DNA of 64,000 bases from a virus: the IMG/VR virus record IMGVR_UViG_3300008448_012223. The stretch is one strand, 5' to 3'. Below the pieces are notes generated by a model, which was not told the DNA's origin, did no database searches, and was given only the letters and a program-made list of their open reading frames with translations. A program made the translations under genes and the position numbers. This document shows, in pieces, positions 20,780 through 37,239 of this stretch. Positions within the stretch are counted from its first letter, which is position 1. Each line of letters begins with the position of its first letter.

Positions 20780-20798
20780 CTGATAGCTGATAACTAAC

Positions 20799-20978: not shown

Positions 20979-21053
20979 AGTAGAATGGTATACACGCCCC
21001 TCTACCAGTAGAGAGGCGTATATCGGCCGACCTCCGATAAGGTCAGCTGATTC

Positions 21054-21701
21054 TTATTCCATAGGATTGGTGCTTGCGGCAGGGGCCGCCCACTCTGCAT
21101 CGTTACCTGCTGCATCCGCTGCTGCTCGTGCAGCAGCGAGTCGGGAAGTACGTTCTAATTGCCGGCGCTCCTGCCGAGCATTATTCTGAGACCGCGCTGC
21201 TAAGAGCCAGGCATCCATCGCGGGCTTTGATTCAAAGCCTAGGCCGCCGATAGATGTCTTATTTACTTCCATTCCCTCTATCCCGCAGGAGTAGAATGTG
21301 ATACTATGGGTATCCATCCCATTTACGGTTAGTACGGAGAAGCTGGGCTCTCCGACTTCAAATAGGATGGAAACGCCCCCTCCCATCATATCTGCGATAT
21401 TATCAGTAATGGTTTCAAATTGGTCCGGTGTTACCCGGACTTCTACCGTAAGACCAGCTAACTGGCCATTGTCAATAGGGGAGCCCTGGTGGGTGACATT
21501 ACTAATCTTCGTAACTGTGCCCACTAATCGGACAGTCCCATCGGCGCATTCTCTGTTCCAGATACGCCCTTGGTATTTAGTCGTAAATGCTATTGAGTAT
21601 AGCATAAACGCCTTGACTGGTTCCTGTGGTTTAGGTTCCGCTGCCTTAAATGCGTCCACAGCTGAGCGAGTGGCTTTGGCGGTAGTGCGTGATGGTCTCA
21701 T
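21054..21701 (-). CDS. Hypothetical beta-rich protein, distant relative of 15813/16426
   Basis: RLVGTV...GLTVEV...I.DNIAD pattern; Ala-rich tail. Confidence 0.8.
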   Translation of the reverse strand: MRPSRTTAKATRSAVDAFKAAEPKPQEPVKAFMLYSIAFTTKYQGRIWNRECADGTVRLVGTVTKISNVTHQGSPIDNGQLAGLTVEVRVTPDQFETITDNIADMMGGGVSILFEVGEPSFSVLTVNGMDTHSITFYSCGIEGMEVNKTSIGGLGFESKPAMDAWLLAARSQNNARQERRQLERTSRLAAARAAADAAGNDAEWAAPAASTNPME

Positions 21702-21735
21702 GGCTAATAAGTTAATAGGTAATAATTAGAGGTTA

Positions 21736-21925
21736 TGTCCCTCCGTTGGGGAGTGGCATCGGCTACTTTCGCAGCTCGAGCACCATAAGCTCCTCCGCTG
21801 GGGAGTGGCTAGTGCAGCTAGTGTAGCTATCGCGACTAGTGCGACACAAGCCCCTCCGTTGGGGAGTGGCTAATATAGCTATGGTAGCTATCGCGATAAT
21901 AGCTCTTCTGAAAGGGAGTGGCTAA
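21736..21925. repeat. Four imperfect hairpin repeats CCTCCGTTGGGGAGTGGC
   Basis: Copies near 21740, 21792, 21853 and a degenerate one near 21903; period about 50-60 nt. Confidence 0.85.
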
Positions 21926-22142
21926 TGAAACTAACGCAGCTCTTGCTGGATCCTTAGGGAGTACGCATAACAGATAGTTTATTGCCACCGCTAATAGAAT
22001 TCGCCGTCACGAGCATAAGCCGCCGCTAGTAACATTCGCTGTCATGAGCAATACTGGATACTACCTATCATATGGAGGGAAGAGCTCCACTAAAAGAAAA
22101 AGGGGCCAGGTGGCCCCCAGGGGTCATATGACCCCATTGTAA

Positions 22143-25100
22143 TTAGAAATCAGGATGATCTTCAGCTTCAGCGAGCTCTAGTTTGTAGTCGCCGAGGTCG
22201 AGATGTACAGCAGTTGCGATTTCCAACAGCTGCTTGAGCTGGGGGTTCCTGACATGATTAGAGAGTTGGAACTCACTTACCATTTGGAACACACTAACTG
22301 GAACGATCTCATCAGCGCCATAACTAGCTGCGTCATCCTGGGTCATAGGAGCCACAGGATCATAGCCCTGGCCAGTACGACGGAAGGCTCCGTATATGGC
22401 AGACGACATGATAAGGCCCTCGCGAGTGAAGTTGCCCCGTTCGAGAGCACCGTATGTGAGAGTACGGGCACGAGCCTTTATAAGCTGGTAGATTACCGCG
22501 GGCTCCTTAGCTAGTTTAGCAGGCATAAGGCCAGCCATAGCCTGAGCAGGAGGTACACCACTTCCTTGGCGATCCGTATCCGCAAGCTTAGTAGAGTTGG
22601 CAGAGTAGTATAACCTGTCTTGCGCCGACTTATACATAGGTACGCCAGCAGCCCAGGCGCGGGCTGCCTGTACTAAGGTCGCCATGAAGATCTTAGCCTC
22701 AGGGGTATAGCCCCCGAGACCCATGTTTTCATAGACGAAACGCCAAGCTATAACACACGCCTTGAGTGCGTCGGTATCGACGCCGCTAGCGCGGTACATA
22801 CTATCCCATGCCTGGAAGGCAAGTGCGGAACAGATACCATAGCCAGCACCTACGGCCCCTTTGTAGTGCATATGCACCTCAGCAGCGTCGCTGACGTACT
22901 TATTGACAGCGATAGCAGTAGCTACAGCCTTATCCCATTTAGTGAGGGATTTCTTGCCCATCTTATCTTCATAGCTCATGAAGGCGAAGAACGGCAGGTC
23001 ATCTGCTTCGTAGCAGTAGAAGTAGCCGCCCATGCCCATGAGACTAGCATTGATAGTGAGGGCACTCTTAGCGTTAATACCATACTTGTGAGCATTAATG
23101 CCGCCGCACTGATCACCATCAGCATCACCTTCGTTAACGGCGTGCCATAGGAGGGGGTTGACCGTATAGTGTGCGACGAAGGCATCAGTAGTAGAGAACT
23201 TGACGCGGCCACATAGGATGAAACCCATAGGAGTACGTTGTACCCCAATAACCTGGCCCTCTTCAACGCCAAGCATACGCACCATAGGGCAATCGGGGTG
23301 CATGAGAATTACAGGCACGCCATCAGCGCTATGAAGCAGTGGGCTATAGCTCGTCTTGACCTTACCAACGACCACATTGCCGGCGCGGGCTATACTTTTC
23401 AGAATGCCCTGGGATTTAACCATAGTGTTACACCATGTGCGTAAACCACGGCTGACCTTAGCAGTCATAGAGTAGATTTTACTATCCAAACCACTCTGGT
23501 CTTCAATCCCTACATCAGTAACGTAAGCCAGCAGAGTTAGAAGGTCTAACATAATGCCAGTAGCGGAGGCGCCAGAGAAGGTACCGAATGCACTCAAGGC
23601 CTTACCATTGATATGAAGAGAGACTTCATTGCCGTTGTTCTGGGCAACGATATCCACTCCATTGGGGTAGGCGGTAGCAAAACGGCCTAGCAGCTCGCGG
23701 TCACTGCCGGGGGTGCTATCAGAAACGTAGTCGTTAACTACACCGATAATGCCCCGTAGATGGTCACGCCCTTTAGTAGTGCTGATGTTAACACAAGCAG
23801 CACAGTCTTTAGATGTGATCATGCTAACTATGGACATAACGTTATCGTACTTAACTTCCTTCATGAGCGCTTCGCCCCAAGCGCGGTTCTGTAGAGCCAC
23901 AATACCGATCTGCTCCATAGTCATCTTGGAGAATGCTACGGACTCACGAGGAGTAGCTATCTCGATATCGTACGGCAGATAGCCGTATATAACTTCGACG
24001 GTCTCTTCGATACGGACGCTGGTATCGTCTATATCGATTACATTGATATCATCGTTAGCGACTACAGACGAGATGGAATCCCACAGGTCGCGGGCCATAT
24101 CAAAGGAGATGACCTCTTTAACACTGTTGGCTCGAGCCCACTCAGTAAAGGCATTAGTCTTAGCCATGAGATCAATGACTTTACCAGTATCATCGATGGT
24201 GAGAAGCGCACCTTCGGGAGTATAGGTGCAGCCCCCCTTCTCAATGGCAAACATCTCTATGAGTGCGGGCCATCCCTTGGTGGTCTCGTTATTCAGGATG
24301 ATATCCCAGGGTTGAGATAATCCTTTAACGTCATAGGGAAGAGTGGTAAGCTTCTTCCCTAGACCGCGGAGTTTGAGGACCTGGTCGCGCCCTACCATTT
24401 CAGTCTCAAGTCGAATGGTGACGCTATCAGCGCGGCCCTCGACGCCATTACGCGTGACAGTCCCGCCTATTACGCGGATGTCCTGCGCGAACGTCTCGTT
24501 CTTGACAATGCAGTACTTGCCCTGCATAATACTGATGATAGGGTTACCAGGAGCATAAACCTGGCCCTCTGCCTTCGCTATCTTACCTTCTATGACTTCT
24601 ATGAGCTTACTCGTGGGGTCATCTAGATCAGCAGCCATAAGAGCGCGAACTGAGCTAGGAATACGGAGTACGTGAAACTCCTTAGTAATGGTCTTCGGTA
24701 CGGTGTATTCGAACTCGAGGTCGCGACGTATAGCAGCAACACCGCTGCCAAAGCCAAAGCGACTATTGGTGAATGCAGTGCGTAGATAGAGGCCACCACC
24801 ACAACTATAGCCGCCATCACCTAAATCAACGCGAAGTAGGCTATCACGACGATCTATGATCTCAGCACGGGTGTATTTACCCGAGCTAGGCGGACGGTTG
24901 TACACCTTAGTGGGCTTGCTGAAGTCATGGATGGAGTATATCTTACCATCCTTAAGCCCAAGGAACATGGCCTTGGCGCCCTTACCTACAGCGATCCACT
25001 TTGTATTGTACTTATCAGGTGCTGCTATGATGCCGGCCTTGAGCGACAATTCGAGATCGCTGGGAGCAAGATTAGTGTTCTCTACTTGCAGGAAGGGGAA

Positions 25101-27224
25101 GGCCTTATCCCAAGGCTTGAACACGATAGGACGACTCATACCGCGATTAATCTCAAACAGAGATTGGCCCTCTTTAGGCTGAGCGCCGTAGTTGATGTCC
25201 TCGCGCCACAGGTTGGTTATCTCGTTGAGGATAGCACGCGCACCAGTGGCGTTATACGCTACCTTCATACAGAGTGCCACAAGGACTACACGACCACTGT
25301 AGTCCTTGCCTCCGACTTTGACGAGTTCATTAGCGATGCGACGCTGACGACCATCATTGACGGTACCTGTACTAAAGTTGAAAGTAGTGCTGCGGTTATT
25401 ACCCTTGATGACAACACAGGGGCCCTCAACACTAACAATACGGTGCTGCTTGACACACAGACAGCCTACGAGAGCGGCCAGGTCATCACCAGACCACGTA
25501 GCTAACTTAGTGAGGAAGTGCTCACTATACATGTTAACTAAGCATTCGGTCTTAGTAGCATAGGTATGCTTGTCGGCTTCGTAGGGAATAGACTTAGTCA
25601 CACCTAAGTTAATGACCTTAGGATTCATCTTAGAGTCTGTGGTGTAAACAACACGGTGGTCTAGAAGCGCAAGGAACTTCTTAGACATACGGCTGTTAGG
25701 AGACACGACATAGAGAATCGGACCTTCAGGCAGAAGGTCGAAGTTATTAGCCCCAAACAAGCGGGCTAGCTCTTTACGAGCTGTCGTGATGCGCGCCTCC
25801 TGCTTAGGAGACACGACTCCACCGAGAGTACTAGGGTCAGGAATTAACATCTCGATAATGCTTTTCATAGTACTAGGGTCATTGGTGGTATTGGTAGAGG
25901 AGCTATCACTCTCTAACCCCTTAGTAGGGGCTCCTGTGTTAGAGAGCGGGCGGGTAGGAGTTACTGCTGCGGGCGCCGCACCAATAAGACCATCAATTGC
26001 TTGAATGGTTAGCGCAACAGCATCATCGTTGTTGACACTATTGTTAAAGACGAATTCCCAGTCTAATAACGTATTAGTGTCATCATATCCAACGGCTTCA
26101 GCATATTCGCCATAGGTCTTATAACCGAGTACACGATCATCGAGACCTACGACTTCACGACAAATCGCAGGATCTAAACTGTCTACTACATCCATCCATG
26201 TATCATCAGGACCAGGTGCTCCGCTTTCTACAAACGCGGCCATGAGGTAGTGGGTGCATAAGAGGCGGGCCACTAACGCCGGGTCGTACATAAGCAGGGC
26301 TGCTTCGTACTCGTCGTTCTCGTGTTCAGTACCCTCGTAGAACGATTTAGTGGCATGCCATTGAGCGAAGCCAGCCTTCATGGCGGCTTTGGATACAGCG
26401 CCAAACTCTAGGTCTTCAGTAAGACCTAGAGCTTGGCAGTGGTGAACAAGCTCATGAGTCACTGTGTATAAATTGTTGTAGTCGGGTATAGTGATGACAC
26501 CATTACAATAAGATGCTATGCTCCCTTGTACGAAGGTGACACCGCATAGTTTGCCTATGGCTATCATGCGGATAGCCGGTACGTCACTTGGTAATTCTGG
26601 CATTACAACGCTCACACAACGTTTAACGCGTGCTGCTTTATTGGCAGCTTTAGCAGCTTTAGCGGTAGATAAAGCCGTTTTATCGTTTTTAGTTTTGTAC
26701 TTCTTGCCCACACAAGTGCGGCCGTTGCCGCGGTAGTTTACGCGGCCTTGATTAAGAGCAGCGATAATACTACCAGCAGCATTATTAACTACGGTAGCAA
26801 CGGCTTTAGCGCCGGTGCCGGTGCTAGTAGGACGCGCGGGGCGCGAGGGACGCGTAAATAATGCACTGACAGCGCGCAGTATAGGTTTGGCCTTACGTTG
26901 TTGTAAGACAAGTTTGTCTACGACGTTACGGCCGCGTAACACGTGTTTGCGGGCGGCTGAGGCTGCGGCAGCTGCGGCACGACGTAGCGCACGCCGTGCT
27001 GATTTTACAACGCAGGGGCGTTGGCTTTGAGGTAAGGAGCGTATAGGGCGGCCGGCTGACGCTATACGACGAGAGCGACGGCGTACTACGCGATTAGCGC
27101 GACGGCTCGCTATCTGCTGGGCACGGCGCCCAGGGCCTACGCGTCGTGCAGTAGTGCGAGTACCTGCGATAGCGGCGCTGATAGAGGCTACAAAAGATTG
27201 GAAGAAGACAAAGTTGACATTCAT
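22143..27224 (-). CDS. Single-polypeptide two-barrel (DPBB) RNA polymerase candidate with basic N-terminus and zincin motif
   Basis: beta-like VTIRLETEMVGRDQVLKLRGLGKK...WDIILN; beta'-like VIGVQRTP...VNPLLWHAVNEGDADGD (DADGD at 23112-23126); HELVH at 26442-26456. Confidence 0.8.
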   Translation of the reverse strand: MNVNFVFFQSFVASISAAIAGTRTTARRVGPGRRAQQIASRRANRVVRRRSRRIASAGRPIRSLPQSQRPCVVKSARRALRRAAAAAASAARKHVLRGRNVVDKLVLQQRKAKPILRAVSALFTRPSRPARPTSTGTGAKAVATVVNNAAGSIIAALNQGRVNYRGNGRTCVGKKYKTKNDKTALSTAKAAKAANKAARVKRCVSVVMPELPSDVPAIRMIAIGKLCGVTFVQGSIASYCNGVITIPDYNNLYTVTHELVHHCQALGLTEDLEFGAVSKAAMKAGFAQWHATKSFYEGTEHENDEYEAALLMYDPALVARLLCTHYLMAAFVESGAPGPDDTWMDVVDSLDPAICREVVGLDDRVLGYKTYGEYAEAVGYDDTNTLLDWEFVFNNSVNNDDAVALTIQAIDGLIGAAPAAVTPTRPLSNTGAPTKGLESDSSSTNTTNDPSTMKSIIEMLIPDPSTLGGVVSPKQEARITTARKELARLFGANNFDLLPEGPILYVVSPNSRMSKKFLALLDHRVVYTTDSKMNPKVINLGVTKSIPYEADKHTYATKTECLVNMYSEHFLTKLATWSGDDLAALVGCLCVKQHRIVSVEGPCVVIKGNNRSTTFNFSTGTVNDGRQRRIANELVKVGGKDYSGRVVLVALCMKVAYNATGARAILNEITNLWREDINYGAQPKEGQSLFEINRGMSRPIVFKPWDKAFPFLQVENTNLAPSDLELSLKAGIIAAPDKYNTKWIAVGKGAKAMFLGLKDGKIYSIHDFSKPTKVYNRPPSSGKYTRAEIIDRRDSLLRVDLGDGGYSCGGGLYLRTAFTNSRFGFGSGVAAIRRDLEFEYTVPKTITKEFHVLRIPSSVRALMAADLDDPTSKLIEVIEGKIAKAEGQVYAPGNPIISIMQGKYCIVKNETFAQDIRVIGGTVTRNGVEGRADSVTIRLETEMVGRDQVLKLRGLGKKLTTLPYDVKGLSQPWDIILNNETTKGWPALIEMFAIEKGGCTYTPEGALLTIDDTGKVIDLMAKTNAFTEWARANSVKEVISFDMARDLWDSISSVVANDDINVIDIDDTSVRIEETVEVIYGYLPYDIEIATPRESVAFSKMTMEQIGIVALQNRAWGEALMKEVKYDNVMSIVSMITSKDCAACVNISTTKGRDHLRGIIGVVNDYVSDSTPGSDRELLGRFATAYPNGVDIVAQNNGNEVSLHINGKALSAFGTFSGASATGIMLDLLTLLAYVTDVGIEDQSGLDSKIYSMTAKVSRGLRTWCNTMVKSQGILKSIARAGNVVVGKVKTSYSPLLHSADGVPVILMHPDCPMVRMLGVEEGQVIGVQRTPMGFILCGRVKFSTTDAFVAHYTVNPLLWHAVNEGDADGDQCGGINAHKYGINAKSALTINASLMGMGGYFYCYEADDLPFFAFMSYEDKMGKKSLTKWDKAVATAIAVNKYVSDAAEVHMHYKGAVGAGYGICSALAFQAWDSMYRASGVDTDALKACVIAWRFVYENMGLGGYTPEAKIFMATLVQAARAWAAGVPMYKSAQDRLYYSANSTKLADTDRQGSGVPPAQAMAGLMPAKLAKEPAVIYQLIKARARTLTYGALERGNFTREGLIMSSAIYGAFRRTGQGYDPVAPMTQDDAASYGADEIVPVSVFQMVSEFQLSNHVRNPQLKQLLEIATAVHLDLGDYKLELAEAEDHPDF

Positions 27225-27285
27225 GGTATTACTAGTAATGTAGAACCACTAAAAGAAAAAGGGGCCCAAGCAGGGCCCTTTTTAC

Positions 27286-28032
27286 TTAGTCAAGTAGACC
27301 GTTTATATCTGCACGTGTTTTATCAACAGTACCTGCGGCTGCTTCTGTTGTAGCTTCTGCTGTTGCTGCTGCGGCTGCTTCTGTTGCTGCTGCGGCTGCG
27401 GCAGTTGCACGAGCTGTTGCAGCAGCCTCCCGTTTGCGTTTGCGGGCGGCCGCTTTACTATGTAATTGTTCCACAGTTACCACGTTAGATTTTGCCGTCC
27501 CCTCAAACCCGTCCAGTATAGACGGGTCTATCTTCGGGCGCATGACTTCCCGATGAAGTTGTATCTCCGCACCTTCAAGGTGAAAGTACTGGGTTATTGT
27601 GCCCTTGTATTCTGTTTCGCGTCCAACGCAGAGGTCTTCTGCGTTGAAGCTAACTTTTACACTTCCACATGATGAGCTTTCCCAGTCGTCTTCGAAATCT
27701 GTAGATAACTCTACAGACATAATAATATCATCGCTGGCGTCTCCGGTCAGACGCTCTACAAACTTGGACGTAGATAAGCTACGGCCATCGGAGGTAGTGA
27801 GAGGTACCTCCCCGTTCTTATTGGATATCAGCCGGAATTCTAGCCAGTAGCTAGATAGATCCAAGCGGCGTTTGATAGCGCCATTGTGCACGTAAGCAAG
27901 AATGCCAGGTTTAGTGTTGACACTCTTGCTTACGTTAAGAGTAAATACGTAGTTTTTCACAGTAGAGTTGGTGGGGTTAGAAGGGTTAGAGGAGTTAGAG
28001 GAGTTAGAGGCTTGATTGTTGTTGTTTCTCAT
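27286..28032 (-). CDS. Hypothetical protein, beta-rich core with Ala/Thr/Glu-rich tail
   Basis: 248-aa ORF with its own cassette element at 28057. Confidence 0.8.
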   Translation of the reverse strand: MRNNNNQASNSSNSSNPSNPTNSTVKNYVFTLNVSKSVNTKPGILAYVHNGAIKRRLDLSSYWLEFRLISNKNGEVPLTTSDGRSLSTSKFVERLTGDASDDIIMSVELSTDFEDDWESSSCGSVKVSFNAEDLCVGRETEYKGTITQYFHLEGAEIQLHREVMRPKIDPSILDGFEGTAKSNVVTVEQLHSKAAARKRKREAAATARATAAAAAATEAAAAATAEATTEAAAGTVDKTRADINGLLD

Positions 28033-28096
28033 TGTGTATACTTGGGTGTATAAAACTACTAAAAGAAAAGGGGCCCCCGCTCAGGCCCCTTAACTA

Positions 28097-28231
28097 CTAC
28101 TCTTTACCTATCTCGCACGCCGTCACGGGGGAGTCCCCATGACAAATGCCTACGTATACCCCACCAACGATAGCGGCATTAGTGGCAAGAATTACCACAA
28201 CAGAAATTATGTAAGCTAGTGTATATTTCAT
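28097..28231 (-). CDS. Micro membrane protein family A (44 aa)
   Basis: MKYTLAYIISVVVILATNAAIVGGVYVGICHGDSPVTACEIGKE; AGGAG RBS. Confidence 0.75.
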   Translation of the reverse strand: MKYTLAYIISVVVILATNAAIVGGVYVGICHGDSPVTACEIGKE

Positions 28232-28397
28232 AATCTCTCCTAGGATTAATAGATCACTAGAAGAAAAAGGGGCCAATTGTTGGCGCACTTAACGAACTAA
28301 GGCGTTGAGCTTCATTTATCTTTTCTTTAACACGCTATCATTTAGAAACGAGGGCCCGTCTCTGTTTCTTATTCAAGATAGAGGCGGGCCCATAGCA

Positions 28398-28550
28398 TTA
28401 GTCTATTAGAGTAATAATCTCTAAATCACCATCTGGTACAACGTACCAGCGATGACCATCAAGGTCTAGATGACACGCTGGACCATCTACAGACCGACGT
28501 TGAATCGTCAAACGATTCAACACGTGAAGATAAGTGTGATAAGGGCACAT
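28398..28550 (-). CDS. 50-aa protein family B
   Basis: MCPYHTYLHVLNRLTIQRRSVDGPACHLDLDGHRWYVVPDGDLEIITLID; GGAGG RBS; paralog at 29559. Confidence 0.75.
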   Translation of the reverse strand: MCPYHTYLHVLNRLTIQRRSVDGPACHLDLDGHRWYVVPDGDLEIITLID

Positions 28551-28757
28551 AGATTTACCTCCTAGAGTAAATGTTCACTAGAAAGAAAAGGGGCCGCCCA
28601 CCCAACAGCCCCTTAACTACACGACTAGCTACAGACTACGCAAGAGAGCGTGCCCCTCCTCTTCCACTTGATGGGAAAGAGCGCGAGCCTCCATCATTAG
28701 AGCGAGGCAGGTTGTCACTAGAAGAAAAAAGGGGCTGTGGTTAGCAGCCCCCTAATA

Positions 28758-29189
28758 TTATTCAGGTAAATCTACAGAGGGAGCCCAACCCGCCTCTAAC
28801 ATCGACACGTAATCAATGTCGGAATGGTAGTTCCGTTCAACATAGACTCCTTCACCCCGCTGGTAGCGGCAGAGGGGTAGGGATACATACTTGAGAGGTC
28901 GGATGAATGCATAGTTACCCTCATCCCAGGTAGCCACCTCCCAGTAAGTAGCCCACTCAGGAATTACTTCCGCTGTGGGTATCTCTACTTTCCATACGGT
29001 CGTGAAGGCACGGCCAGGATTGAGCTTGACCAGCTGCTCTTCACAGACGATTATCTCTCCTCCATTGTAGGAGACCTCTATACCTACCTTCTTGGCCAGA
29101 GAAGATAGGATACCCGCTAGACGAGGCGGGCAAGGTAGCTTCATGTTATAGGAGTTGGGATTGAAGTTCCACGTGTCACGACACTCCAC
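28758..29189 (-). CDS. Hypothetical protein
   Basis: 143-aa ORF; start uncertain. Confidence 0.6.
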   Translation of the reverse strand: MECRDTWNFNPNSYNMKLPCPPRLAGILSSLAKKVGIEVSYNGGEIIVCEEQLVKLNPGRAFTTVWKVEIPTAEVIPEWATYWEVATWDEGNYAFIRPLKYVSLPLCRYQRGEGVYVERNYHSDIDYVSMLEAGWAPSVDLPE

Positions 29190-29258
29190 CTTGATGGTGT
29201 CGGGACCTACCGCCAGAATGCGGTAGTTGAAGTTACCGATGGCCCCGGCTAAAGAAGA

Positions 29259-29495
29259 CTACCAGTTGTCGTGCCCTCCGGAAGCAGCGAGAGAGGTGAT
29301 TTCTTCTTCGTTAAGACGAGCCTTGAAGTTTCGTATTACCGCATCGCGTGTCTTAGCGATGTCGGCTTCAGATAGAGTCGGGGGCTGAGGACCGCCCATG
29401 AAATAATACGAGATGAATGCCCACGTCGTTGGGTGGACGTAGACGCCCGCCGCCTGTAGTGCGGCGTAGATTGACGCCGCTAGGATTTTGTACAT
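29259..29495 (-). CDS. Hypothetical protein
   Basis: 78 aa, AGGAG RBS, cassette element at 29519. Confidence 0.7.
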   Translation of the reverse strand: MYKILAASIYAALQAAGVYVHPTTWAFISYYFMGGPQPPTLSEADIAKTRDAVIRNFKARLNEEEITSLAASGGHDNW

Positions 29496-29558
29496 ATGCT
29501 CTCCTGGGACTAATGAATCACCAGAAGGAAAAAGGGGAGCATATAGCTCCCCATAGTG

Positions 29559-29711
29559 TTAGTCTATTAGAGTGATGACCTCGAAGTCACCATCTGGTAG
29601 AACGTACCAGCGGTGACCATCCAGGTCTATGTGACACGCAGGACCATCAACTGTACGTAACTGGATAGTGGTATGGTTGATAATGTGCAGATAGGTTTGA
29701 TATGGGCACAT
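29559..29711 (-). CDS. 50-aa protein family B (paralog)
   Basis: MCPYQTYLHIINHTTIQLRTVDGPACHIDLDGHRWYVLPDGDFEVITLID; AAGGAG RBS. Confidence 0.75.
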   Translation of the reverse strand: MCPYQTYLHIINHTTIQLRTVDGPACHIDLDGHRWYVLPDGDFEVITLID

Positions 29712-29786
29712 GATAATACTCCTTCTAGAGTAAAGGTCACTAAAAGGAAAAAGGGGAGCTATATGCTCCCCTTACTAATTAACTAC

Positions 29787-30083
29787 CTACACCCCACGGC
29801 AACGTCCAGCCTTCTTAGCTGCTTGGCGTAACGCCTTGCCGTGATAACGACGCCAACGTTTAGACTGGTTATAGCTTTGGTGGAAGGAGCCACCTCCCCA
29901 GAAGCCCGCATCCCAACGAGCATTGTCAGGCTCACCAGGACCGTAGAAGACGTGACGGCTACTACGTACCACCGTCCCACCACGATGCTGGCTACCCCAG
30001 CTCTGACGAGCCACACTAGACTCGTAATTGTAAGCAGCAGTAGCACGAGCAGCTACGGTGACATTAGTGGTGCAGTTTAACAT
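29787..30083 (-). CDS. Basic hypothetical protein (98 aa)
   Basis: Start MLNCTT downstream of the cassette element at 30108. Confidence 0.6.
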   Translation of the reverse strand: MLNCTTNVTVAARATAAYNYESSVARQSWGSQHRGGTVVRSSRHVFYGPGEPDNARWDAGFWGGGSFHQSYNQSKRWRRYHGKALRQAAKKAGRCRGV

Positions 30084-30147
30084 GAGCTGTTCTCTTGGAC
30101 TAGTGTTCACAGGAAGGAAAAAAGGTGCATTGCTGTCCCTCTGTTAT

Positions 30148-30987
30148 CTATTTCTTACGAAGCACGGGCTTGGCCTTAGCCCGATACCCCAGTCGCTCGA
30201 TCAATTGCATGAGGTACTTGAGCTGACATTTGGGGTTGCCATCTACCGCTAGGTAATATTCACCCCAACGATAGACGGCAGATGCCACGGCTCCTGATTT
30301 GAGAAGTGAACGGAGAGCCTCATTCTCTCCAATCTTCTTAAGGTCAAAAGACTTCTTGTTAAGGAAGTCAATGACGGGTTGGTAGCCCGCCATTTGTTTA
30401 GCGTGCTCAGGAGACGCAAGATACGCTTCCTCCGCCTGTGCCTTATCCTCTTCCTTTTGCTTTTTGTCTGTTTTCTCTTCTACCCAGCGTAGATAGTCGG
30501 GTATAACCTCACGCTCGATAATATCGCGGTAGTAAGCGGCGGCCTCCTCCTCACGCCACTCATAGTGCTCCGTAGTAGTAGGGCATTCTACTACTAGGTG
30601 CGTCATGTCTACCTCTACCTCTCCGTTAGAGAGGTAGATGCACCGGGCTTCTAGACGAGCCGCTTCATCTAGAGGAGAAGTGACAAGCCCATTTTGGTCC
30701 CGCCAACGACGTACGCGGACGGGAATGCGTAACAATGCAGGAGTCCACTTCTGACGAGTGTAAGAGCAATCTACCGACGGAATGTCCTCGTAGTACCCCT
30801 TAGAGGGATGAGTCCCTCCGTCTATTATTTCCACTACCTCTTCCAAGGTAGCGATGGCACGTTCTTGGCAGGCTGATGCTGTGTAGTATTCTACACGGTA
30901 TAAGTAATCAGCTCCTACTTTAATGCCTATAGACTCGTCTAATTTGACGAAGCGGAATGTATAGCCAGCCAGCTTGATAGATTTCAT
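30148..30987 (-). CDS. Hypothetical protein
   Basis: 279 aa, AGGAGG RBS. Confidence 0.75.
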   Translation of the reverse strand: MKSIKLAGYTFRFVKLDESIGIKVGADYLYRVEYYTASACQERAIATLEEVVEIIDGGTHPSKGYYEDIPSVDCSYTRQKWTPALLRIPVRVRRWRDQNGLVTSPLDEAARLEARCIYLSNGEVEVDMTHLVVECPTTTEHYEWREEEAAAYYRDIIEREVIPDYLRWVEEKTDKKQKEEDKAQAEEAYLASPEHAKQMAGYQPVIDFLNKKSFDLKKIGENEALRSLLKSGAVASAVYRWGEYYLAVDGNPKCQLKYLMQLIERLGYRAKAKPVLRKK

Positions 30988-31166
30988 AGTCTCCTCCTTG
31001 GAGATAAGTTCATGAAAGAAAAAAGGGGCCTCGGGCCCCTCCTTACCTACTCTACTTATTCAGCTCCGCTCACTCACGGCGGAGCTTCTCTATTTCCTGC
31101 CTTACCTGTTCCATCTCGTGGCTTTACGCCGCAAGATCAATAACAGGAGCGGGGCGGCGTTGTTGA

Positions 31167-33137
31167 TCAGTTATGACTGATCACATAGACGCGCTTAGCA
31201 TCCGTGTAATCTTGATAGTCTTTTGGTAGAAGAGACCGTCCTACCTTAAGTGGCTCGCCCCATGCGTCGAAGGCACCATAGAGATCCCCGTTTGCTCCGA
31301 GGAGCACCCGATTGACGAAGGCATTATAGAGATACCCGTCTGCTCCGAGGCGCACCCCTTTGATGAACCACATCTTAAGAATCTTCTGGGCTATCTCTTC
31401 GTAGAGAAGAATAACCGTGGGCTCTCGTTGCCCTAGCCCAAGTGCTTCGCAATTATCGAAGCACAGATCCCCGGACTGGTTAATCCAGGTCCAGGACTGC
31501 GCTATTATTCCTGAATTATCCTCGAATATGAGGAATCCGGAGTTGCGCTTTTCTTGCCCATACCAAGCGCAGGTTTCCCCAGCCCCGTCTGGGTGCTGGC
31601 AACAGTTAGTATATTCACCGAGGAAGAGCCCTCGCGTATCCTCCCGGGGGAGGAAGTAGGCGCGGATTCCATCCCGGGTAGCATCAATCCCCGAAAGGAA
31701 ATCTGGTATTTGTAGAGAACGTATAAAACGCCCCTCGTAGTAGTTGTAATCCCGCGCAGATACACCCCAATTGGCGCACTCCAGGGCAAACCCCTGGTGG
31801 TTAATACTTGCGTACTTACGTGTCTTACATACCGTCACCAGTAGACGGAATGGCAGAGAGCGCTCCTCCACGCTCAGTTTGTGCCAGACTCGGCATATTA
31901 AGCCGAGTTCAGAAAATGAGGTGGAGCGCTGGCGTAGGCGCTCCCCCTGTGCGAATAGGAACTCGCTCAATCCCTGCCCGCCGAGGGGTAGCCAGTAAGT
32001 GGCGTCATGCTCGCTGTAGCCGAGCTTGGCCATCTTAGTGAGCCACTCCTCAGAGCGGCTTCCGAAAGTTGTTACTAATGGGACGAGGTACTCTGGAGGA
32101 TTCTCCCGTAGTAGCAATAGCTTATTAGCTACTGCTACCTTCAGGGTGGGTATATACCCCTCCTCCCCAAATATAGTTTCTTCGTTCTCTTTAAAGGCTT
32201 TGAGCAAAGGGCGCTCAATAGCCCAACTAAGTTCCCCGTACAATTTACGGAGGGCTAGGCGCTTGTGGCCATTAAGCCATAAGTACTGGGCTATGGCCGT
32301 GCGCCCCGAGTGGCACACCTCATTAAAGCGCTGCCAGAAGGCAGCGATGCGTTCGGTACGGGAACGACGGCGCGCCCGATCCCACTGTCCCCCCTCCTCT
32401 TTCCAGAGGACCCCAGCAAGGGCTCGGAGGTCTGGGCGGGACTTGTACATAGTTCCCAGCCGTACGGCTAAAGATTTGGGAATCTCTGTGTTATATTTCC
32501 ATGTCCGCGCAGCTGGGATTAGATCCCATACGTTACCAATGCGGGTGGGAACAGACATATGAACCAGTACCCGCTTAACCCAAATGGGTAAGCGGTTATA
32601 GTTTGGGGTAAGCGCTACCCTTAACACTTTACTGTGATCCGGTTGGTAACCGGAGTTCCATACCCGCCCAGGGGTGCGGACATCCTCCCATAGAGGGAGG
32701 ATGCGCTTGACCTCCCACCAGTACTTAACACCTAGATCTACTAAGTGTTCAGCCAGCTGAGGAGTTCTTAGCTCCTCGAACCAAACCCCTTCTTTCTCAT
32801 AAGAGAGTCCGATACCCTCGTTTAAACGAAGGTATCGGATAAGGCGCAGGCGCACCATGTGCGCCTCCTTTGCTTCCTCCAAGCTTACTTCTCGGGTGAT
32901 GACCCGAGAGATAATCCAGCGCTGGGAGCTGGATAGACTATTCCACTCCTCCCACTCACTCCAGGGAGTATGTGGATTGAGTTCCAGCCACTGCCGGAAC
33001 TCAAGTAGAACGTTATAAAGAGAGAAATAGTAGGGAGCGGGGTCAGCTCCTAACTCAGCTTGTGCCTCCCACTCAAGGGAGTAGGCAAGCTGAAGGCGAG
33101 CCGCCTTGGTTTTGGCGGATTTGATAAACTTAGACAT
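31167..33137 (-). CDS. PcfJ-related GNAT-like domain protein
   Basis: C-terminal LG.YTNCCQH..GAGE.CA..G....GFL.F....IIAQSW.W.....L.FDN.E pattern. Confidence 0.6.
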   Translation of the reverse strand: MSKFIKSAKTKAARLQLAYSLEWEAQAELGADPAPYYFSLYNVLLEFRQWLELNPHTPWSEWEEWNSLSSSQRWIISRVITREVSLEEAKEAHMVRLRLIRYLRLNEGIGLSYEKEGVWFEELRTPQLAEHLVDLGVKYWWEVKRILPLWEDVRTPGRVWNSGYQPDHSKVLRVALTPNYNRLPIWVKRVLVHMSVPTRIGNVWDLIPAARTWKYNTEIPKSLAVRLGTMYKSRPDLRALAGVLWKEEGGQWDRARRRSRTERIAAFWQRFNEVCHSGRTAIAQYLWLNGHKRLALRKLYGELSWAIERPLLKAFKENEETIFGEEGYIPTLKVAVANKLLLLRENPPEYLVPLVTTFGSRSEEWLTKMAKLGYSEHDATYWLPLGGQGLSEFLFAQGERLRQRSTSFSELGLICRVWHKLSVEERSLPFRLLVTVCKTRKYASINHQGFALECANWGVSARDYNYYEGRFIRSLQIPDFLSGIDATRDGIRAYFLPREDTRGLFLGEYTNCCQHPDGAGETCAWYGQEKRNSGFLIFEDNSGIIAQSWTWINQSGDLCFDNCEALGLGQREPTVILLYEEIAQKILKMWFIKGVRLGADGYLYNAFVNRVLLGANGDLYGAFDAWGEPLKVGRSLLPKDYQDYTDAKRVYVISHN

Positions 33138-33203
33138 AGAATTGTCCTCCTGGGACTAAAATTCACCAGAAGAAAAAAGGACCTTATCAAGACCCCTTAA
33201 TTA

Positions 33204-33347
33204 TTATTTATTTACCTCCTCACAGAGTGAAGATTTCAGGTCTCCGTAACAGGCCTCTACGGCTATTCCGCCAACAATGGCGGAGCAGCTAAATGTTAAT
33301 ATTATGATAGAGACAATATAGACGATATCGTACTTACCTAATTTCAT
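33204..33347 (-). CDS. Micro membrane protein family A (47 aa)
   Basis: MKLGKYDIVYIVSIIILTFSCSAIVGGIAVEACYGDLKSSLCEEVNK; AGGAGG RBS. Confidence 0.75.
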   Translation of the reverse strand: MKLGKYDIVYIVSIIILTFSCSAIVGGIAVEACYGDLKSSLCEEVNK

Positions 33348-33415
33348 AATTCCTCCTAGGATTAATAGATCACTAGAAGAAAAAAGGGGATAAAGCATAT
33401 CCCCTTTTAATTAAA

Positions 33416-33931
33416 TTACTTTAACCAGCTTAAGTCTAGCTGGTAATAGAGAAGTTTATCACTCTTCTCTATTGTCTCGAAGAGACCATAGAGGCACTCC
33501 TCGAGATGATCTCGGTCCACCCGGCTAGTCAGACCGAGCCCCTCCCAGGTAGGCTGAGGGGGTTTAATCTCTACCAAGCAGGTCTTGGTGATGCCAACAG
33601 CCAAACGAAGACTGTCGGTACGGCATAACTGGCCCAGCTTCTTATCTACTGCCTCGGCGTCGGTAGTAAGCTGAAGAGCCCATAGCTCGCCAGTATACTG
33701 GCGGACTATTACGTCCACCTTGTATACCCGGTCTAGTACTCCCCAATCATCAGTGGGGACGAGACGACGAAGGACACCGCCTCGGGAGTTGAGCTCTAGA
33801 TGTTCACCCGCGAGATCACGCGCCTGGTTATACAGATAACCCGTATTCCATATCTCTCGGGGCTTCGGACACTCGAAGCCTAACTCTTCAACTAGGCGTA
33901 ACACTACTTTCTCCATCTGTAAACCATTCAT
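33416..33931 (-). CDS. Possible PD-(D/E)XK-like nuclease
   Basis: D...LDRVYKVDVIV...ALQLT spacing. Confidence 0.45.
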   Translation of the reverse strand: MNGLQMEKVVLRLVEELGFECPKPREIWNTGYLYNQARDLAGEHLELNSRGGVLRRLVPTDDWGVLDRVYKVDVIVRQYTGELWALQLTTDAEAVDKKLGQLCRTDSLRLAVGITKTCLVEIKPPQPTWEGLGLTSRVDRDHLEECLYGLFETIEKSDKLLYYQLDLSWLK

Positions 33932-33996
33932 GATGTACTCCTAGGATTATAGATCACTAGAAGGAAAAAGGGGCCCCCGCCCAGGCCCCTTAACTA

Positions 33997-34131
33997 CTAC
34001 TCTTTGTCTACCTCACATAGTGAAGACGGTAGAGGTCCATAACAGGCCTCATGGTATACTCCACCAACGATAGCGCCGCATACGCCAAGGATGACGGCAA
34101 CAGCCGCTATGTAAGATAATGTGTATTTCAT
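33997..34131 (-). CDS. Micro membrane protein family A (44 aa)
   Basis: MKYTLSYIAAVAVILGVCGAIVGGVYHEACYGPLPSSLCEVDKE. Confidence 0.75.
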   Translation of the reverse strand: MKYTLSYIAAVAVILGVCGAIVGGVYHEACYGPLPSSLCEVDKE

Positions 34132-34200
34132 AATCCCTCCTAGGGTTATAAGATCACTAAAAGAAAAGGGGCCTTACCAAGGCCCCTTATTTATTATTTA

Positions 34201-34344
34201 TTATTTATTCACCTCCTCACAGAGTGGAGACTTCGGGTCTCCGTAACAGGATTCCACGGCTACTCCACCAACAATGGCGGAGCAAGTAATTGTTAGGAAT
34301 AGCATACATACAATGTATGCTATATCATACTTATCTAGCTTCAT
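34201..34344 (-). CDS. Micro membrane protein family A (47 aa)
   Basis: MKLDKYDIAYIVCMLFLTITCSAIVGGVAVESCYGDPKSPLCEEVNK. Confidence 0.75.
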   Translation of the reverse strand: MKLDKYDIAYIVCMLFLTITCSAIVGGVAVESCYGDPKSPLCEEVNK

Positions 34345-34404
34345 ATATCCTCCTAGGAGTTAACTTCACTAGAAGAAAAAGGGGCGCAGTGCCCCTTCTA
34401 TCAA

Positions 34405-34725
34405 CTACTTAACAAGGATGTAGTTGATGTTGAACTGGAGTATATCCTCCTCCGTCCATCGTTCTCCTTCTGCCAGCCGCCGGGGGCTGACAAATAAACA
34501 TACAATATACTCGGCCCCCGAGGGCACCTGTACCCGATTCACGGGTATGTTTACTCCGAGACGGGCGGAGAGGAGCTCCGCCGTAGAGAGGTGTCCGAGA
34601 GCACTTGTCCACTCAGTAGTGGAGAGGAGAGCGCGGGTCTCTTCCTCTGAAATACAAGTACTAGTGATAGCCCCACCCGGCGTGGTAGGGTAAAGGGAGT
34701 TTGGGAAAGAATTAAGAACGTACAT
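34405..34725 (-). CDS. acrIII-1: AcrIII-1 (DUF1874) viral ring nuclease, anti-type III CRISPR
   Basis: Y.LNSF N-terminus, SALGH45.ST..LLS, NR64V, R83LAE86G; spacing matches SIRV1 gp29 H47/R66/R85/E88 as recalled. Confidence 0.85.
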   Translation of the reverse strand: MYVLNSFPNSLYPTTPGGAITSTCISEEETRALLSTTEWTSALGHLSTAELLSARLGVNIPVNRVQVPSGAEYIVCLFVSPRRLAEGERWTEEDILQFNINYILVK

Positions 34726-34794
34726 AATCTTCCTCTAAGGTTTAAAGTTCACTAGAAGAAAAAGGGAGCATTACACTCCCTAAATTACCCCAAG

Positions 34795-35139
34795 TTACTT
34801 GATATAACCTGGGTTCCAGTTAATTACTGGTTCGACGACGAACTCACCGCCGAATATTACCATCTTAGACCAGACTATGCGTCTGGTTGGTAATGCAACC
34901 TCATCGTAGTAGTTTGGGTCGTCTTCGACGTACCACCAGGGGCGGTGGGCTTCGACGTTCCCGTCGAAAGCAAGGATGAAGACTGACCCGTATCCTCCAC
35001 GGGCGAAGTCCTTGGCCACTGCCAAACTGCGGCTGGCATAAAGAACTTCGCTACAACGATCCCAATCTAAGTGATCGTTGGTATGACCACGATAGGCGTA
35101 GTCATACTCCCTGGGAAGATGTTTATATATACTCATCAT
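34795..35139 (-). CDS. ADP-ribosyltransferase-like protein (R-S-E type)
   Basis: YRG...YASRSLAVAKDFA..G.VF...DEV. Confidence 0.5.
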   Translation of the reverse strand: MMSIYKHLPREYDYAYRGHTNDHLDWDRCSEVLYASRSLAVAKDFARGGYGSVFILAFDGNVEAHRPWWYVEDDPNYYDEVALPTRRIVWSKMVIFGGEFVVEPVINWNPGYIK

Positions 35140-35214
35140 AGGTGTTCTCCTGTGGACTAGTGTTCACAGAAAGAAAAAAGGGGCATTGCTGCCCCTTAAT
35201 TATTATTTATCTAC

Positions 35215-35358
35215 CTATTTATCAGTCTTACACATTGACAGTGCGGGGTAGTCGTAGCAGACAACCCGGTAGAAGGCGCCAAGAATTAGACCATTCACGC
35301 CGAGCACGAGTGCAGCAGCCACAATTAAACCGAGTATATCGTCTTTGATAGATTTCAT
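35215..35358 (-). CDS. Micro membrane protein family A (47 aa, divergent)
   Basis: MKSIKDDILGLIVAAALVLGVNGLILGAFYRVVCYDYPALSMCKTDK. Confidence 0.7.
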   Translation of the reverse strand: MKSIKDDILGLIVAAALVLGVNGLILGAFYRVVCYDYPALSMCKTDK

Positions 35359-35422
35359 AATGTCTCCTCCTGGAGATTATAGATCACCAGAAGAAAAAGG
35401 GGCCCTGCCCAGACCCCTTTTC

Positions 35423-35560
35423 TTATCTCATGTTTATATACTCCTGACGCACAGTCGGTATATTCTGGCCGTCTCCACGTTCTGGTAGCTGGCTGGCCAA
35501 TACCGTCATGAAGATAATAGGAATTACTACGACGCTGATAATTAGAGCTAATGATTTCAT
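35423..35560 (-). CDS. 45-aa membrane micro-protein
   Basis: MKSLALIISVVVIPIIFMTVLASQLPERGDGQNIPTVRQEYINMR; AGGAG RBS; first cassette of the array. Confidence 0.65.
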   Translation of the reverse strand: MKSLALIISVVVIPIIFMTVLASQLPERGDGQNIPTVRQEYINMR

Positions 35561-35646
35561 ATACCCTCCTAGGGTTATAGACCACTAGAAGGAAAAAGGG
35601 GCCAATTGAAGGGCCGGGTGGGGGAGGGGATATACCCTATAATACG

Positions 35647-35744
35647 CCCAAATACCGCCAGCAAGTTTATGGAATCTAAGAGCTCTAGGTATTAATACGT
35701 ATACACCCAAATACCGCCAGCAAATATCGAGAATCTAGAAGCTC
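35647..35744. repeat. Two approximately 40-bp direct repeats, period 59
   Basis: CCCAAATACCGCCAGCAA at 35647 and 35706, each followed by GAATCT..AGCTC. Confidence 0.85.
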
Positions 35745-35748
35745 AATA

Positions 35749-36426
35749 ATGAGGCAGAGAGGTGTAGTAGTATGGACCAGTTATATAGGAGGTAATGGTA
35801 TGTTAGAGGACATCAAGGGAGCGGTTAGGGTAGAGAAGTTGAGTGAGATACAGGTAAGGGAATTACAGAGGAGGCTAGGGATACAGCAGACAGGAATAAT
35901 GGGGCCAATGACGAGGAAGGCCTGGGAGGACTGGAAGAGGAGTAAGGGTATGGGGGAACCGGGGTTAATAGGGCCGGGTTCTATAGGTCTATTACTAGAG
36001 GAGATAAACTGGACGGATATGACGAGTAAGGTGAGTAAGTACTTCACAGTGAGAGAAGTAACGAAGGGGGAGGCGGCGCGCATACCAACGAGTAAGGTCA
36101 TCCAAGACAATATAATGAGACTAGCTAAGGAGTTAGATAAGATAAGGGAAGAGTGGGGTAAGCCCATTATAGTAACGAGTTGGTATAGGCCCCTTGCGAT
36201 TAACAGGGCAGTAGGAGGAGTGGATAATAGTCAGCATATAGAGGGGCTAGCAGTAGACATAGCGCCCATAGACCCCGCCGAGCTAATCGAGTTCGAGAGA
36301 TGGTTAGACGAGCATTGGTATGGGCCGCTGGGGTGGGGGGCCCAGAGTGGGAGGGGCTTCACGCACCTAGGGTTAACGAGGGGGTGGAGAGCAGGAGGAA
36401 AGAAGGGGCCCCGCTGGAGATACTAA
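35749..36426 (+). CDS. Peptidase M15 endolysin with N-terminal peptidoglycan-binding-like domain
   Basis: VTSWYRP..INRAVGG..NSQH..G.AVDI...FTHL; the real start may be MLEDIK. Confidence 0.88.
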   Translation: MRQRGVVVWTSYIGGNGMLEDIKGAVRVEKLSEIQVRELQRRLGIQQTGIMGPMTRKAWEDWKRSKGMGEPGLIGPGSIGLLLEEINWTDMTSKVSKYFTVREVTKGEAARIPTSKVIQDNIMRLAKELDKIREEWGKPIIVTSWYRPLAINRAVGGVDNSQHIEGLAVDIAPIDPAELIEFERWLDEHWYGPLGWGAQSGRGFTHLGLTRGWRAGGKKGPRWRY

Positions 36427-36483
36427 TGCCTACCCCTCCCCATACAAGACAAGGAGCATTAGCATACTAATACAAGTAGAAGT

Positions 36484-37239
36484 ATGCTAAGAAACATTGA
36501 TAGAGCAATGCGGCTGCAAGAGTTAAATAGTCAGCAGGTGCGGGAGCTACAACAGGAGCTAGGTGGTTTAGTAGTAGATGGGGTAATGGGGCCGAGGACA
36601 GAGGCTAGGTGGAAGGAGTGGAAGGAGGCAAATAATCAAGCGGAGCCCGACCTAATAGGGCCAGGCTCTGTGCGTCTATTATTATCAGATGATGAAGTAA
36701 TGACGAGAGGAGAATACGATCTAGCGTTAGCCCCCGCCTCTAAGAGAGATAGAGATCGATACTACAGGCCCCTAATGGCAGCGATGGAGGAGTGTAATAT
36801 AAAGGAGCCCGCGCGTATAGCGATGTTCCTAGCTCAGCTGATGCACGAGTCAGGGAACCTACGCTACGATGAGGAGATATGGGGGCCCACACCAATACAG
36901 AGGGGATACGAGGGCAGGAGAGACCTCGGTAATATAAAGGTAGGAGATGGGCGAAGATTCAGGGGTAGAGGTTTATTTCAGTTAACGGGCCGGGCCAATT
37001 ACCAAAACATGGGGAATATGCTAGGGCTACCGCTAGTAGATAGCCCAGAACTAGCAAAGGAGCCCGTCAACTCAGCACGCATAGCAGCGCACTACTGGAG
37101 AACACGGGGGCTAAATGAAATAGCAGACAAGAATGATATAGACGCATTCAGGCAGGTAACGCGACGTATCAATGGCGGGCTGATAGGGTTATCAGATAGA
37201 CTAGAACACTGGAAGAGAATACAGGCAGTGCTGACATGA
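36484..37239 (+). CDS. Glycoside hydrolase family 19 (chitinase-like) lysozyme
   Basis: FLAQLMHESG.LRY.EE, YEGRRDLGN...GDG..FRGRG.FQLTGR.NY, TRRINGG. Confidence 0.92.
   Translation: MLRNIDRAMRLQELNSQQVRELQQELGGLVVDGVMGPRTEARWKEWKEANNQAEPDLIGPGSVRLLLSDDEVMTRGEYDLALAPASKRDRDRYYRPLMAAMEECNIKEPARIAMFLAQLMHESGNLRYDEEIWGPTPIQRGYEGRRDLGNIKVGDGRRFRGRGLFQLTGRANYQNMGNMLGLPLVDSPELAKEPVNSARIAAHYWRTRGLNEIADKNDIDAFRQVTRRINGGLIGLSDRLEHWKRIQAVLT

Follow-up and report, generated by a model that had tools for sequence, protein, structure and literature searches.

Promoter-early stem-loops (PeSLs) of T4-like phages (Arbiol 2010; Comeau 2014, PMC4122927) are composite elements, in which a terminator stem-loop and a regulatory sequence precede nearly every small open reading frame (ORF) of the hyperplastic region. 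They are found at the indel, replacement and rearrangement junctions between close relatives, their sequence is lineage-specific, and a sigma70-type early promoter (-35/N17/-10) follows the stem-loop. In our study, a comparable element was analysed in a viral DNA stretch of 64,000 nucleotides (IMG/VR record IMGVR_UViG_3300008448_012223), the whole of which is called the window. On its minus strand, between 22.1 and 35.6 kb, a GC hairpin, a T-tract and the 9-mer CTTYTRGTG form a unit that is repeated along an array of genes. We found this feature to be real and highly ordered: a predicted terminator is fused to a hairpin that would mask the Shine-Dalgarno (SD) sequence, at the junction of shuffling cassettes. 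The units lie in a hyperplastic region, at indel and replacement junctions between close relatives, and function like PeSLs; however, no -35/N17/-10 promoter follows the stem-loop and sigma70 elements are lacking. Only about 14 nucleotides separate the hairpin from the conserved GTG, the sequence after the terminator is the anti-SD arm, and the phage belongs to the genus Fukuivirus, not to the T4-like phages. Since the junction behaviour is shared and the sigma70 promoter is not, the unit is a variant of the PeSL-type element rather than a PeSL itself.

SD-masking hairpins of the T4 genes e, soc, 49 and I-TevI were reportedly described by McPheeters et al. in 1986, and a late promoter inside such hairpins has been proven. 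The read-through RNA of these genes has its SD buried in a local hairpin, as proposed here, but in the present array the masking arm is fused to the terminator U-tract and repeated 13 or more times, and an internal start is only proposed. RNA thermometers of the fourU and ROSE types share with the units a U-run paired with the SD, G-U pairs in the stem and a bulged nucleotide; they are single elements in the 5' untranslated regions of heat-shock or virulence genes, whereas the units are repeated in an array. The likeness to Thermus phage P23-45, whose motifs were mapped by cappable-seq and chromatin immunoprecipitation, lies in a cryptic giant virion protein accompanied by a second two-barrel RNA polymerase (RNAP), in conserved motifs before many small genes and in conserved terminator motifs, but the motifs of P23-45 are AT-rich or GC-rich and not fused to an SD hairpin. 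The first-pass annotation had pointed to the hairpin promoters of the N4 virion RNAP, which also lie upstream of small early-type genes. N4 needs a stem of 5-7 bp, a 3-nucleotide loop and a T7-like polymerase; the analogy fails because the loops here vary (3-7 nucleotides, followed by a U-tract) and the polymerase is two-barrel, not T7-like.

The region showed about 86% DNA identity with Ma-LMM01, MaMV-DC, MaMV-DH01 and four other MaMV isolates of the same genus. The window was compared with these seven relatives, and the confinement of the unit was counted in four complete genomes. The array is located between the gp064 homolog and divergent endolysin/chitinase genes; its coordinates correspond to gp064-gp067 of Ma-LMM01 with many additional small genes, and its gene content was different in every relative compared.

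Architecture of the two-hairpin unit

The exact 9-mer was found 17 times in the window, always on the minus strand, against 2.1 +/- 1.5 matches in shuffled sequences. Three of these matches (37353, 38533 and 39689) lie outside the array without hairpin and T-tract and are chance occurrences. A looser search, in which a complete unit was a GC hairpin, T4-6, C or CC and the 9-mer with at most two changes, gave 17 complete units from 22101 to 35597, again on the minus strand only. Together with two degenerate copies, upstream of the ORFs 34795-35139 and 30148-30987, the total is 19, the number that the first-pass annotation had counted over the same region. The geometry was strict: a stop codon is followed by 24-41 nucleotides holding the GC hairpin, then by T4-6, C or CC, the 9-mer, 22-27 nucleotides and ATG. 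An ORF follows 18 of the 19 units, and the array ends, after the gene of a 1693-amino-acid (aa) protein, with the last one (22101), which has a double hairpin. The same annotation had described hairpin, T-tract, 9-mer, AGGAG and ATG before nearly every gene; an AGGAG-type SD follows the 9-mer in only 13-14 of the 19 units. The SD or the stem is missing in five or six of them, namely before the 1693-aa, 248-aa and 98-aa genes, before a micro-ORF, in the last unit and partly at 31024. The first copy (35597) has, as had been noticed, a weak hairpin (4 bp only, -6.4 kcal/mol); the first unit of Ma-LMM01, MaMV-DC, CH01 and CH02 keeps the full hairpin despite having no gene upstream.

The unit was present in the seven relatives, and it was found in 6, 9, 9 and 7 copies in the four complete genomes among them, on one strand and within one block of 8-13 kb per genome, which ends just past the gp064 homolog. 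No copy was found elsewhere in these four genomes, and a reversed-pattern control gave zero matches. A search of Rfam gave nothing at the gathering score. When a 16-mer of the unit was scanned against viral and genome contig collections, only single chance matches in unrelated taxa were obtained, which are no evidence of its distribution.

In 17 of the 19 units, the first hairpin has a stem of 6-10 bp, typically of -15 to -20 kcal/mol, followed by T4-6 and preceded by a stop codon 24-41 nucleotides upstream, as in intrinsic terminators. The region from 21.5 to 36 kb contained 37 terminator-like sites (9.2 +/- 2.7 in shuffles), and a strict terminator search gave 14 sites in the array against three in the remaining 50 kb, with the 9-mer following the array sites only. 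The hairpin and T-tract are thus, by prediction, textbook intrinsic terminators. The GC-rich hairpin 1 with its U-tract would accordingly end the transcript of the upstream gene, an activity that we infer for the units generally.

RNA folding showed a second hairpin, in which the U-tract and CUUCUAG pair with CUAGGAGG(RR), the SD of the next gene. This stem folds in 13 of the 19 units with energies of -6 to -15 kcal/mol, and its covariation, assessed by aligning 36 distinct SD-bearing units from the window and the seven relatives and counting the pairs, was moderate. Paired cells amounted to 85.8%, compared with 45-68% when the partner was slid by 1-3 columns, and the observed covariation was reached by none of 500 shuffles. 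At the R6 position, A-U was found 15 times and G-C nine times, G9 of the 9-mer pairs in 34 of the 36 units with the C preceding the 3' arm, and T8 is a conserved bulged U. Three compensatory stem types were present, CTAG/CTAG, CTGG/CCAG and CTGTG/CACAG, the third in unit 3. In SD-bearing units, pairing accounts for the entire 9-mer except T8. The 9-mer had been taken for a promoter since it is conserved beyond the need of a terminator, and since both T-tract and 9-mer are retained in the first copy, which has no upstream gene to terminate. Both arguments lose their force, because an anti-SD arm of a covarying hairpin explains them equally well.

On balance, we consider it probable that each unit is a two-hairpin module, which acts mainly at the RNA level and insulates and shuffles gene cassettes. 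The U-tract that ends the terminator would, together with the 9-mer, also form the 5' arm of hairpin 2 by pairing with C-CYAGGAG(G), the SD of the next gene; the hairpin would consist of a lower stem of 7-11 bp, the bulged U (T8), an upper stem of 2-3 bp and an AU-rich loop. In an RNA carrying the whole unit, the ribosome-binding site of the next gene would be masked, and each gene of the array would thereby become an insulated cassette. In the route of relief that we favour, a transcript would start inside the unit, near G7-R10 of the 9-mer; we infer both the masking and the route of its relief. Several points weigh against this interpretation. The polypyrimidine/polypurine composition produces a high pairing background (64-68% in the slid controls). 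Only about three independent stem types underlie the clear covariation, and these may have spread as whole duplicated units. Efficient terminators without internal starts predict falling expression, whereas expression in Ma-LMM01 is flat. Pairing cannot explain everything, since the T-tract, the 9-mer and the ATG spacing are also kept in five or six units without an SD partner; the SD-less units that keep the 9-mer are those before the polymerase gene (the 1693-aa ORF), the gp065-like gene, the 98-aa ORF and the micro-ORF, and the last unit, and further cases occur in L007, a relative of 82% identity.

Recombination at the units and content of the cassettes

When the array was compared by BLAST with the seven relatives, 120 of the 144 ends of homology blocks fell within 30 nucleotides of a unit (random expectation 39.4 +/- 5.2). 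The blocks were in different order in different genomes, and unit types were common to unrelated genes. Recombination at the units, which the first-pass annotation had listed as an alternative to its promoter, is therefore strongly supported. Being near-identical over about 45-60 nucleotides, the units would serve as crossover points for the gain, loss and reordering of cassettes between related phages, as do the PeSLs of T4.

These observations also suit a reading in which the units are relics of recombination only, that is, gene-converted repeats with no regulation beyond ordinary termination: the homology breakpoints lie at the units, unrelated genes share unit types, and units 8 and 16 are identical over 28 nucleotides, where assemblies were broken. 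Such relics would hardly keep their stems paired by compensatory changes while the loops vary, or maintain strand and ATG spacing so strictly, and we judge this explanation improbable. Integron cassettes with attC-like sites were also considered and set aside; the junctions are terminators with U-tracts, and no integrase was found among the window genes scanned, although no systematic search for one was made.

One of the cassette genes (34405..34725, minus strand) encodes a member of PF08960 (STIV B116-like/DUF1874; E 2.3e-12), which we take to be the AcrIII-1 ring-nuclease family. This gene likely has an anti-defence function, and, should the assignment hold, at least part of the array would be an anti-defence island. 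Five paralogous hydrophobic microproteins of 44-47 aa with C-terminal cysteine pairs were found in separate cassettes (35215-35358, 34201-34344, 33997-34131, 33204-33347 and 28097-28231, all on the minus strand). Two 50-aa paralogs on the same strand also occupy separate cassettes (29559-29711 and 28398-28550).

Transcription of the array, the phage RNA polymerase and a candidate second polymerase

In the published time course of Ma-LMM01 (PMC5780444), the log2 FPKM (fragments per kilobase per million mapped reads) of gp067, gp066, gp065 and gp064 was 7.9, 6.8, 6.6 and 7.5 at 3 h, and 8.2, 8.4, 7.3 and 8.0 at 6 h, respectively. Expression was thus flat across five strong terminators and about 10 times above that of the silent gp037-041 cluster. 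The array genes were low-level and 'middle', not early; the early cluster gp054-063 begins directly after the last unit. A flat profile over five terminators excludes a single upstream promoter combined with efficient termination, so either transcription restarts at each unit or the polymerase ignores the terminators. In four small freshwater metatranscriptome libraries of 2017, the phage was found at 99-100% identity (19000-38000); its contigs reached 46 kb and were flat in depth, which reflects either heavy infection or phage DNA in the RNA libraries. These contigs break at the 28-nucleotide repeat of units 8 and 16 and are uninformative on starts, ends and strand.

A host sigma70 promoter does not suit the units. 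Sigma70-like sites were not enriched (18 against 15.2 +/- 4.0 in shuffles) and none fits the units; neither a -35/-10 pair nor a -10 could be fitted within them. Whatever register is chosen, the 9-mer is without A at -11 or without T at -7. According to a 2026 preprint, a terminator can be overlapped by a sigma70 promoter whose -10 directly follows the T-tract, so the lack of room for a -35/-10 pair, on which the first-pass annotation had relied, is by itself no argument, although the annotation's observation that no such pair fits was borne out. On the model of this coupling, the units could be host promoters that have their -35 in the stem, the T-tract for a spacer and a -10 right after it. 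Coupling of this kind, with a start about 10 bp past the termination site, has been reported as widespread in bacteria, and TATAAT is present in some loops. However, no TAnnnT directly follows the T-tract; no register of the hexamer at that place has both A at -11 and T at -7, and in units of the CTGG type they are missing altogether. TATAAT-like loops occur in only about five of the 19 units, the start would fall inside the SD, and the shuffles gave no excess of sigma70-like sites, all of which makes host promoter-coupled terminators very improbable. A resemblance to SP6/T7-like promoters (GGTGA.CTATA) was rejected as well, as no part of the unit is less conserved than the loop with the motif and the relatives have no T7-like annotation; no single-subunit T7-like RNAP was found in the scanned parts of the window or in the published annotation of the relatives.

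Papers on the relatives of Ma-LMM01 state that no RNAP is encoded and that only sigma70-type promoters are used. The last gene of the array (22143..27224, minus strand; gp064 family) encodes a protein of 1693 aa, which its motifs and predicted fold identify as a single-chain two-barrel RNAP. It carries a DxDGD loop, and 23 homologs were found, the most distant with 31% identity. Two blocks stood out when 19 sequences, with identities as low as 30%, were reduced to a consensus: a beta-like one (K/R...K...TT.PY...W..(I/L)LNNE..KG), whose Lys/Arg block is invariant, and a beta'-like one (RTPM.F ... P..W...NEGD.DGD), in which the first Asp of the metal loop is invariant and the remainder of DxDGD is present at the consensus level. 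By motifs and predicted fold, the protein has the features of a two-barrel RNAP, namely two double-psi beta-barrels, the DxDGD metal loop in the beta'-like barrel and the Lys/Arg block in the beta-like barrel. The AlphaFold model is confident (pLDDT, the predicted local distance difference test, 84.3; pTM, the predicted template modelling score, 0.83). Its best structural matches were QDE-1, with a Z of 13.3 over 324 aligned residues, plant RDR2 (12.7), and P23-45 gp96 and P74 gp62 (10.2); Foldseek gave QDE-1 (E 4.6e-4), bacterial beta, the second subunits of Pol II/III and crAss-type giant proteins. Sequence searches of Pfam, PHROG and PDB returned no family for this protein or for the 3562-aa protein described below, so the identity of the polymerase is visible only by alignment and fold. 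The polymerase part is the C-terminal ~900 aa; the N-terminal 220 residues, with 49 K/R and 4 D/E, are extremely basic, and an HExxH motif was observed at residue 257. In L007 (4500-13717), the polymerase region has another arrangement, with ORFs of 1268, 219 and 1238 aa, the last of which matches the C-terminal polymerase part only; the gp065-like gene and the 1268-aa ORF there have an identical SD-less leader.

A second giant protein, of 3562 aa (41889-52577, minus strand), is by its motif a candidate second polymerase, of the virion two-barrel type. Its DFDGD and an upstream R..P.G were invariant in 23 sequences of 20-48% identity, and an invariant NP..S....LGDFDGD lies at residue 2537. The homologs are giant metagenomic proteins of 3,000-5,400 aa, in which a second conserved block, containing two lysines, precedes the metal loop by about 1,000 residues. 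The model of the DFDGD region was poor (pLDDT 63), a profile comparison with the 1693-aa family aligned the metal loop only (E 0.036, not significant), and BLASTP gave no significant match between the two proteins. Of the two phage RNAPs claimed by the first-pass annotation, the 1693-aa protein is therefore backed by motifs and fold, and the 3562-aa protein by a motif only.

With a polymerase at hand, the T-tract and 9-mer may, as an added function, be a sigma-independent promoter of the phage two-barrel RNAP that starts near G7-R10; we hold this as a tentative proposal, somewhat less likely true than false. Transcripts begun inside the unit would lack the anti-SD arm and be translated, and read-through would be masked, by the logic of T4 e, soc and I-TevI. 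The flat expression from gp067 to gp064 across five strong terminators argues for such starts, as does the retention of the 9-mer and of the 22-27-nucleotide ATG spacing in SD-less units, including that of the polymerase gene itself. The first unit keeps its full hairpin without an upstream gene in Ma-LMM01, MaMV-DC, CH01 and CH02, the two-barrel RNAP gene closes the array, and P23-45 offers a precedent in its virion and non-virion two-barrel RNAPs with their own motifs before many small genes.

Further support comes from distant phages whose polymerase is 31-42% identical; they have the same genome plan with other sequences, including per-gene units of hairpin plus motif. In L008 (2800-7900) and L230 (1400-2600), a 5-bp hairpin is followed by TAAATAAG (or TTTAAACTG) and then by a segment complementary to the hairpin loop. 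These units precede each of about 15 small genes and the polymerase gene and are followed by CACTAA-rich leaders; they have no U-tract and so are not terminators. This complementarity to the loop covaries, both among the copies and from genome to genome, in the manner of a pseudoknot or an alternative hairpin. In L009 and L229, a conserved GC hairpin with T7-8 was found after every gene, near the next SD.

Several observations count against promoters embedded in the units: pairing accounts for the 9-mer except T8, and the array genes of Ma-LMM01 are low-level and not early. A promoter-like sequence is already present upstream of the array, and the 9-mer of SD-less units could have been maintained by concerted evolution, as the repeats recombine. 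The unit is also absent from the rest of the genome; it cannot therefore be the general promoter of the polymerase, nor, being confined to one block per genome, a general promoter class. In a stronger form of this proposal, which we regard as rather unlikely, the units would be sigma-independent promoters within terminators for the phage two-barrel RNAP, with the anti-SD arm as a gate of polymerase identity. If this is true, only transcripts begun in the unit by the phage enzyme would be translated, read-through by the host RNAP would be silent, and every shuffled cassette would be plug-and-play, with its own stop, start and translation lock.

The flat profile would equally result if one long transcript were made from the promoter-like region upstream of the array by a polymerase that ignores terminators, be it a host enzyme under antitermination or the two-barrel enzyme of the phage, whose flap may be missing; this too we consider doubtful. 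Hairpin 1 would then block unmodified host RNAP and stabilise 3' ends, and hairpin 2 with its bulged U would act as a translational operator; a protein, cleavage within the AU-rich loop or, as in fourU elements, temperature would open it. A conserved promoter-like sequence stands at the array head in all relatives, and, like typical protein operators and RNA thermometers, the units have a conserved bulged U and a stem rich in G-U pairs. The paper on YonO also places the flap needed for hairpin-dependent termination among the domains that such enzymes lack. On the other side, no RNA-binding protein was identified as a candidate regulator, the promoter-like sequence matches sigma70 poorly (a 14-nucleotide spacer, or a -10 without T at -7), and the polymerase gene is at the far end of the array, which leaves its first transcription unaccounted for.

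Individual units, neighbouring motifs and significance

The units are numbered from the array head along the minus strand. Unit 1 (35558..35622) consists of the weak 4-bp hairpin, T5, CC with the 9-mer, the SD-masking stem and the ATG of a 45-aa ORF. It is followed by unit 2 (35356..35423; CTGG/CCAG type) before a 47-aa ORF and by unit 3 (35137..35204) before a 114-aa ORF, which has a degenerate 9-mer and the compensatory CTGTG/CACAG stem. The 106-aa gene of PF08960, which we take to be AcrIII-1-like, is preceded by unit 4 (34723..34788). ORFs of 47, 44 and 171 aa, the last gp066-like, follow unit 5 (34342..34405), unit 6 (34129..34192) and unit 7 (33929..33994), respectively. Unit 8 (33345..33410), before a 47-aa ORF, shares its 28 identical nucleotides with unit 16, and assemblies broke there. 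Unit 9 (33135..33203) is of the CTGG/CCAG type and precedes a 656-aa ORF. A degenerate 9-mer, an SD and a partial stem were found in unit 10 (30985..31049), before a 279-aa ORF, and a weak hairpin without the SD stem in unit 11 (30081..30148), before the 98-aa ORF. Unit 12 (29709..29777) precedes a 50-aa ORF, whose paralog of the same length follows unit 15 (28548..28616). Between them are unit 13 (29493..29558; CTGG/CCAG type), before a 78-aa ORF, and unit 14 (28695..28755), which lacks the SD stem and is followed by the micro-ORF of 22 codons. The weak hairpin of unit 16 (28229..28293) is followed by a 44-aa ORF. Two SD-less units follow, unit 17 (28030..28094), with a 9-mer ending in GTA, before the 248-aa gp065-like gene, and unit 18 (27222..27285) before the RNAP gene. 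Unit 19 (22060..22136), with its double hairpin, T5 and 9-mer, lies after the polymerase gene, has no gene for about 400 nucleotides and marks the border between the array and the early cluster.

The promoter-like sequence at the array head (TTGCTG ... TATTATAGG) is present in two tandem copies (35630..35725, minus strand) and corresponds to the BPROM call for Ma-LMM01 gp067. It was found in all relatives, as a single copy in Ma-LMM01, MaMV-DC, CH01 and CH02. At the other end, the stretch of about 400 non-coding nucleotides between the last unit and the gp063-like early gene (21700-22090, minus strand) contains a tandem repeat of 2 x 35 nucleotides (21984-22050), together with a hairpin motif, CCACTCCCC...GGAGG, in four copies. 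The last of these copies is the counterpart of the 'early promoter' called by BPROM in Ma-LMM01, where 42-bp repeats are present. A second strand-specific motif, TTAGTTATCAG(TTAT), was found on the minus strand at 295, 302, 2615, 2952, 3543, 4161, 20419 and 20793. It lies 25-45 nucleotides upstream of the start codons of a left-end paralog family and of two early-region genes, a position that suggests it may be another class of phage promoter.

Ma-LMM01-type phages are model viruses of toxic Microcystis blooms. The published view is that they have no RNAP and no phage-specific regulatory motifs, and that all three temporal classes depend on host sigma70 (PMC5780444, PMC9927357). This view is challenged by the identification, from motifs and predicted fold, of a conserved giant gene as a two-barrel RNAP, and by an ordered, phage-specific regulatory unit that punctuates a hypervariable accessory array beside the polymerase gene. 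It is further challenged by the finding that the same units are exchange points of gene cassettes, one of which has a domain that we take for an anti-CRISPR ring nuclease. The unit is a compact module of terminator and translation lock, whose logic is directly testable. It provides a handle on how such phages, facing a host whose defence repertoire is exceptionally large, regulate and renew their accessory genes, among them probably genes of anti-defence.

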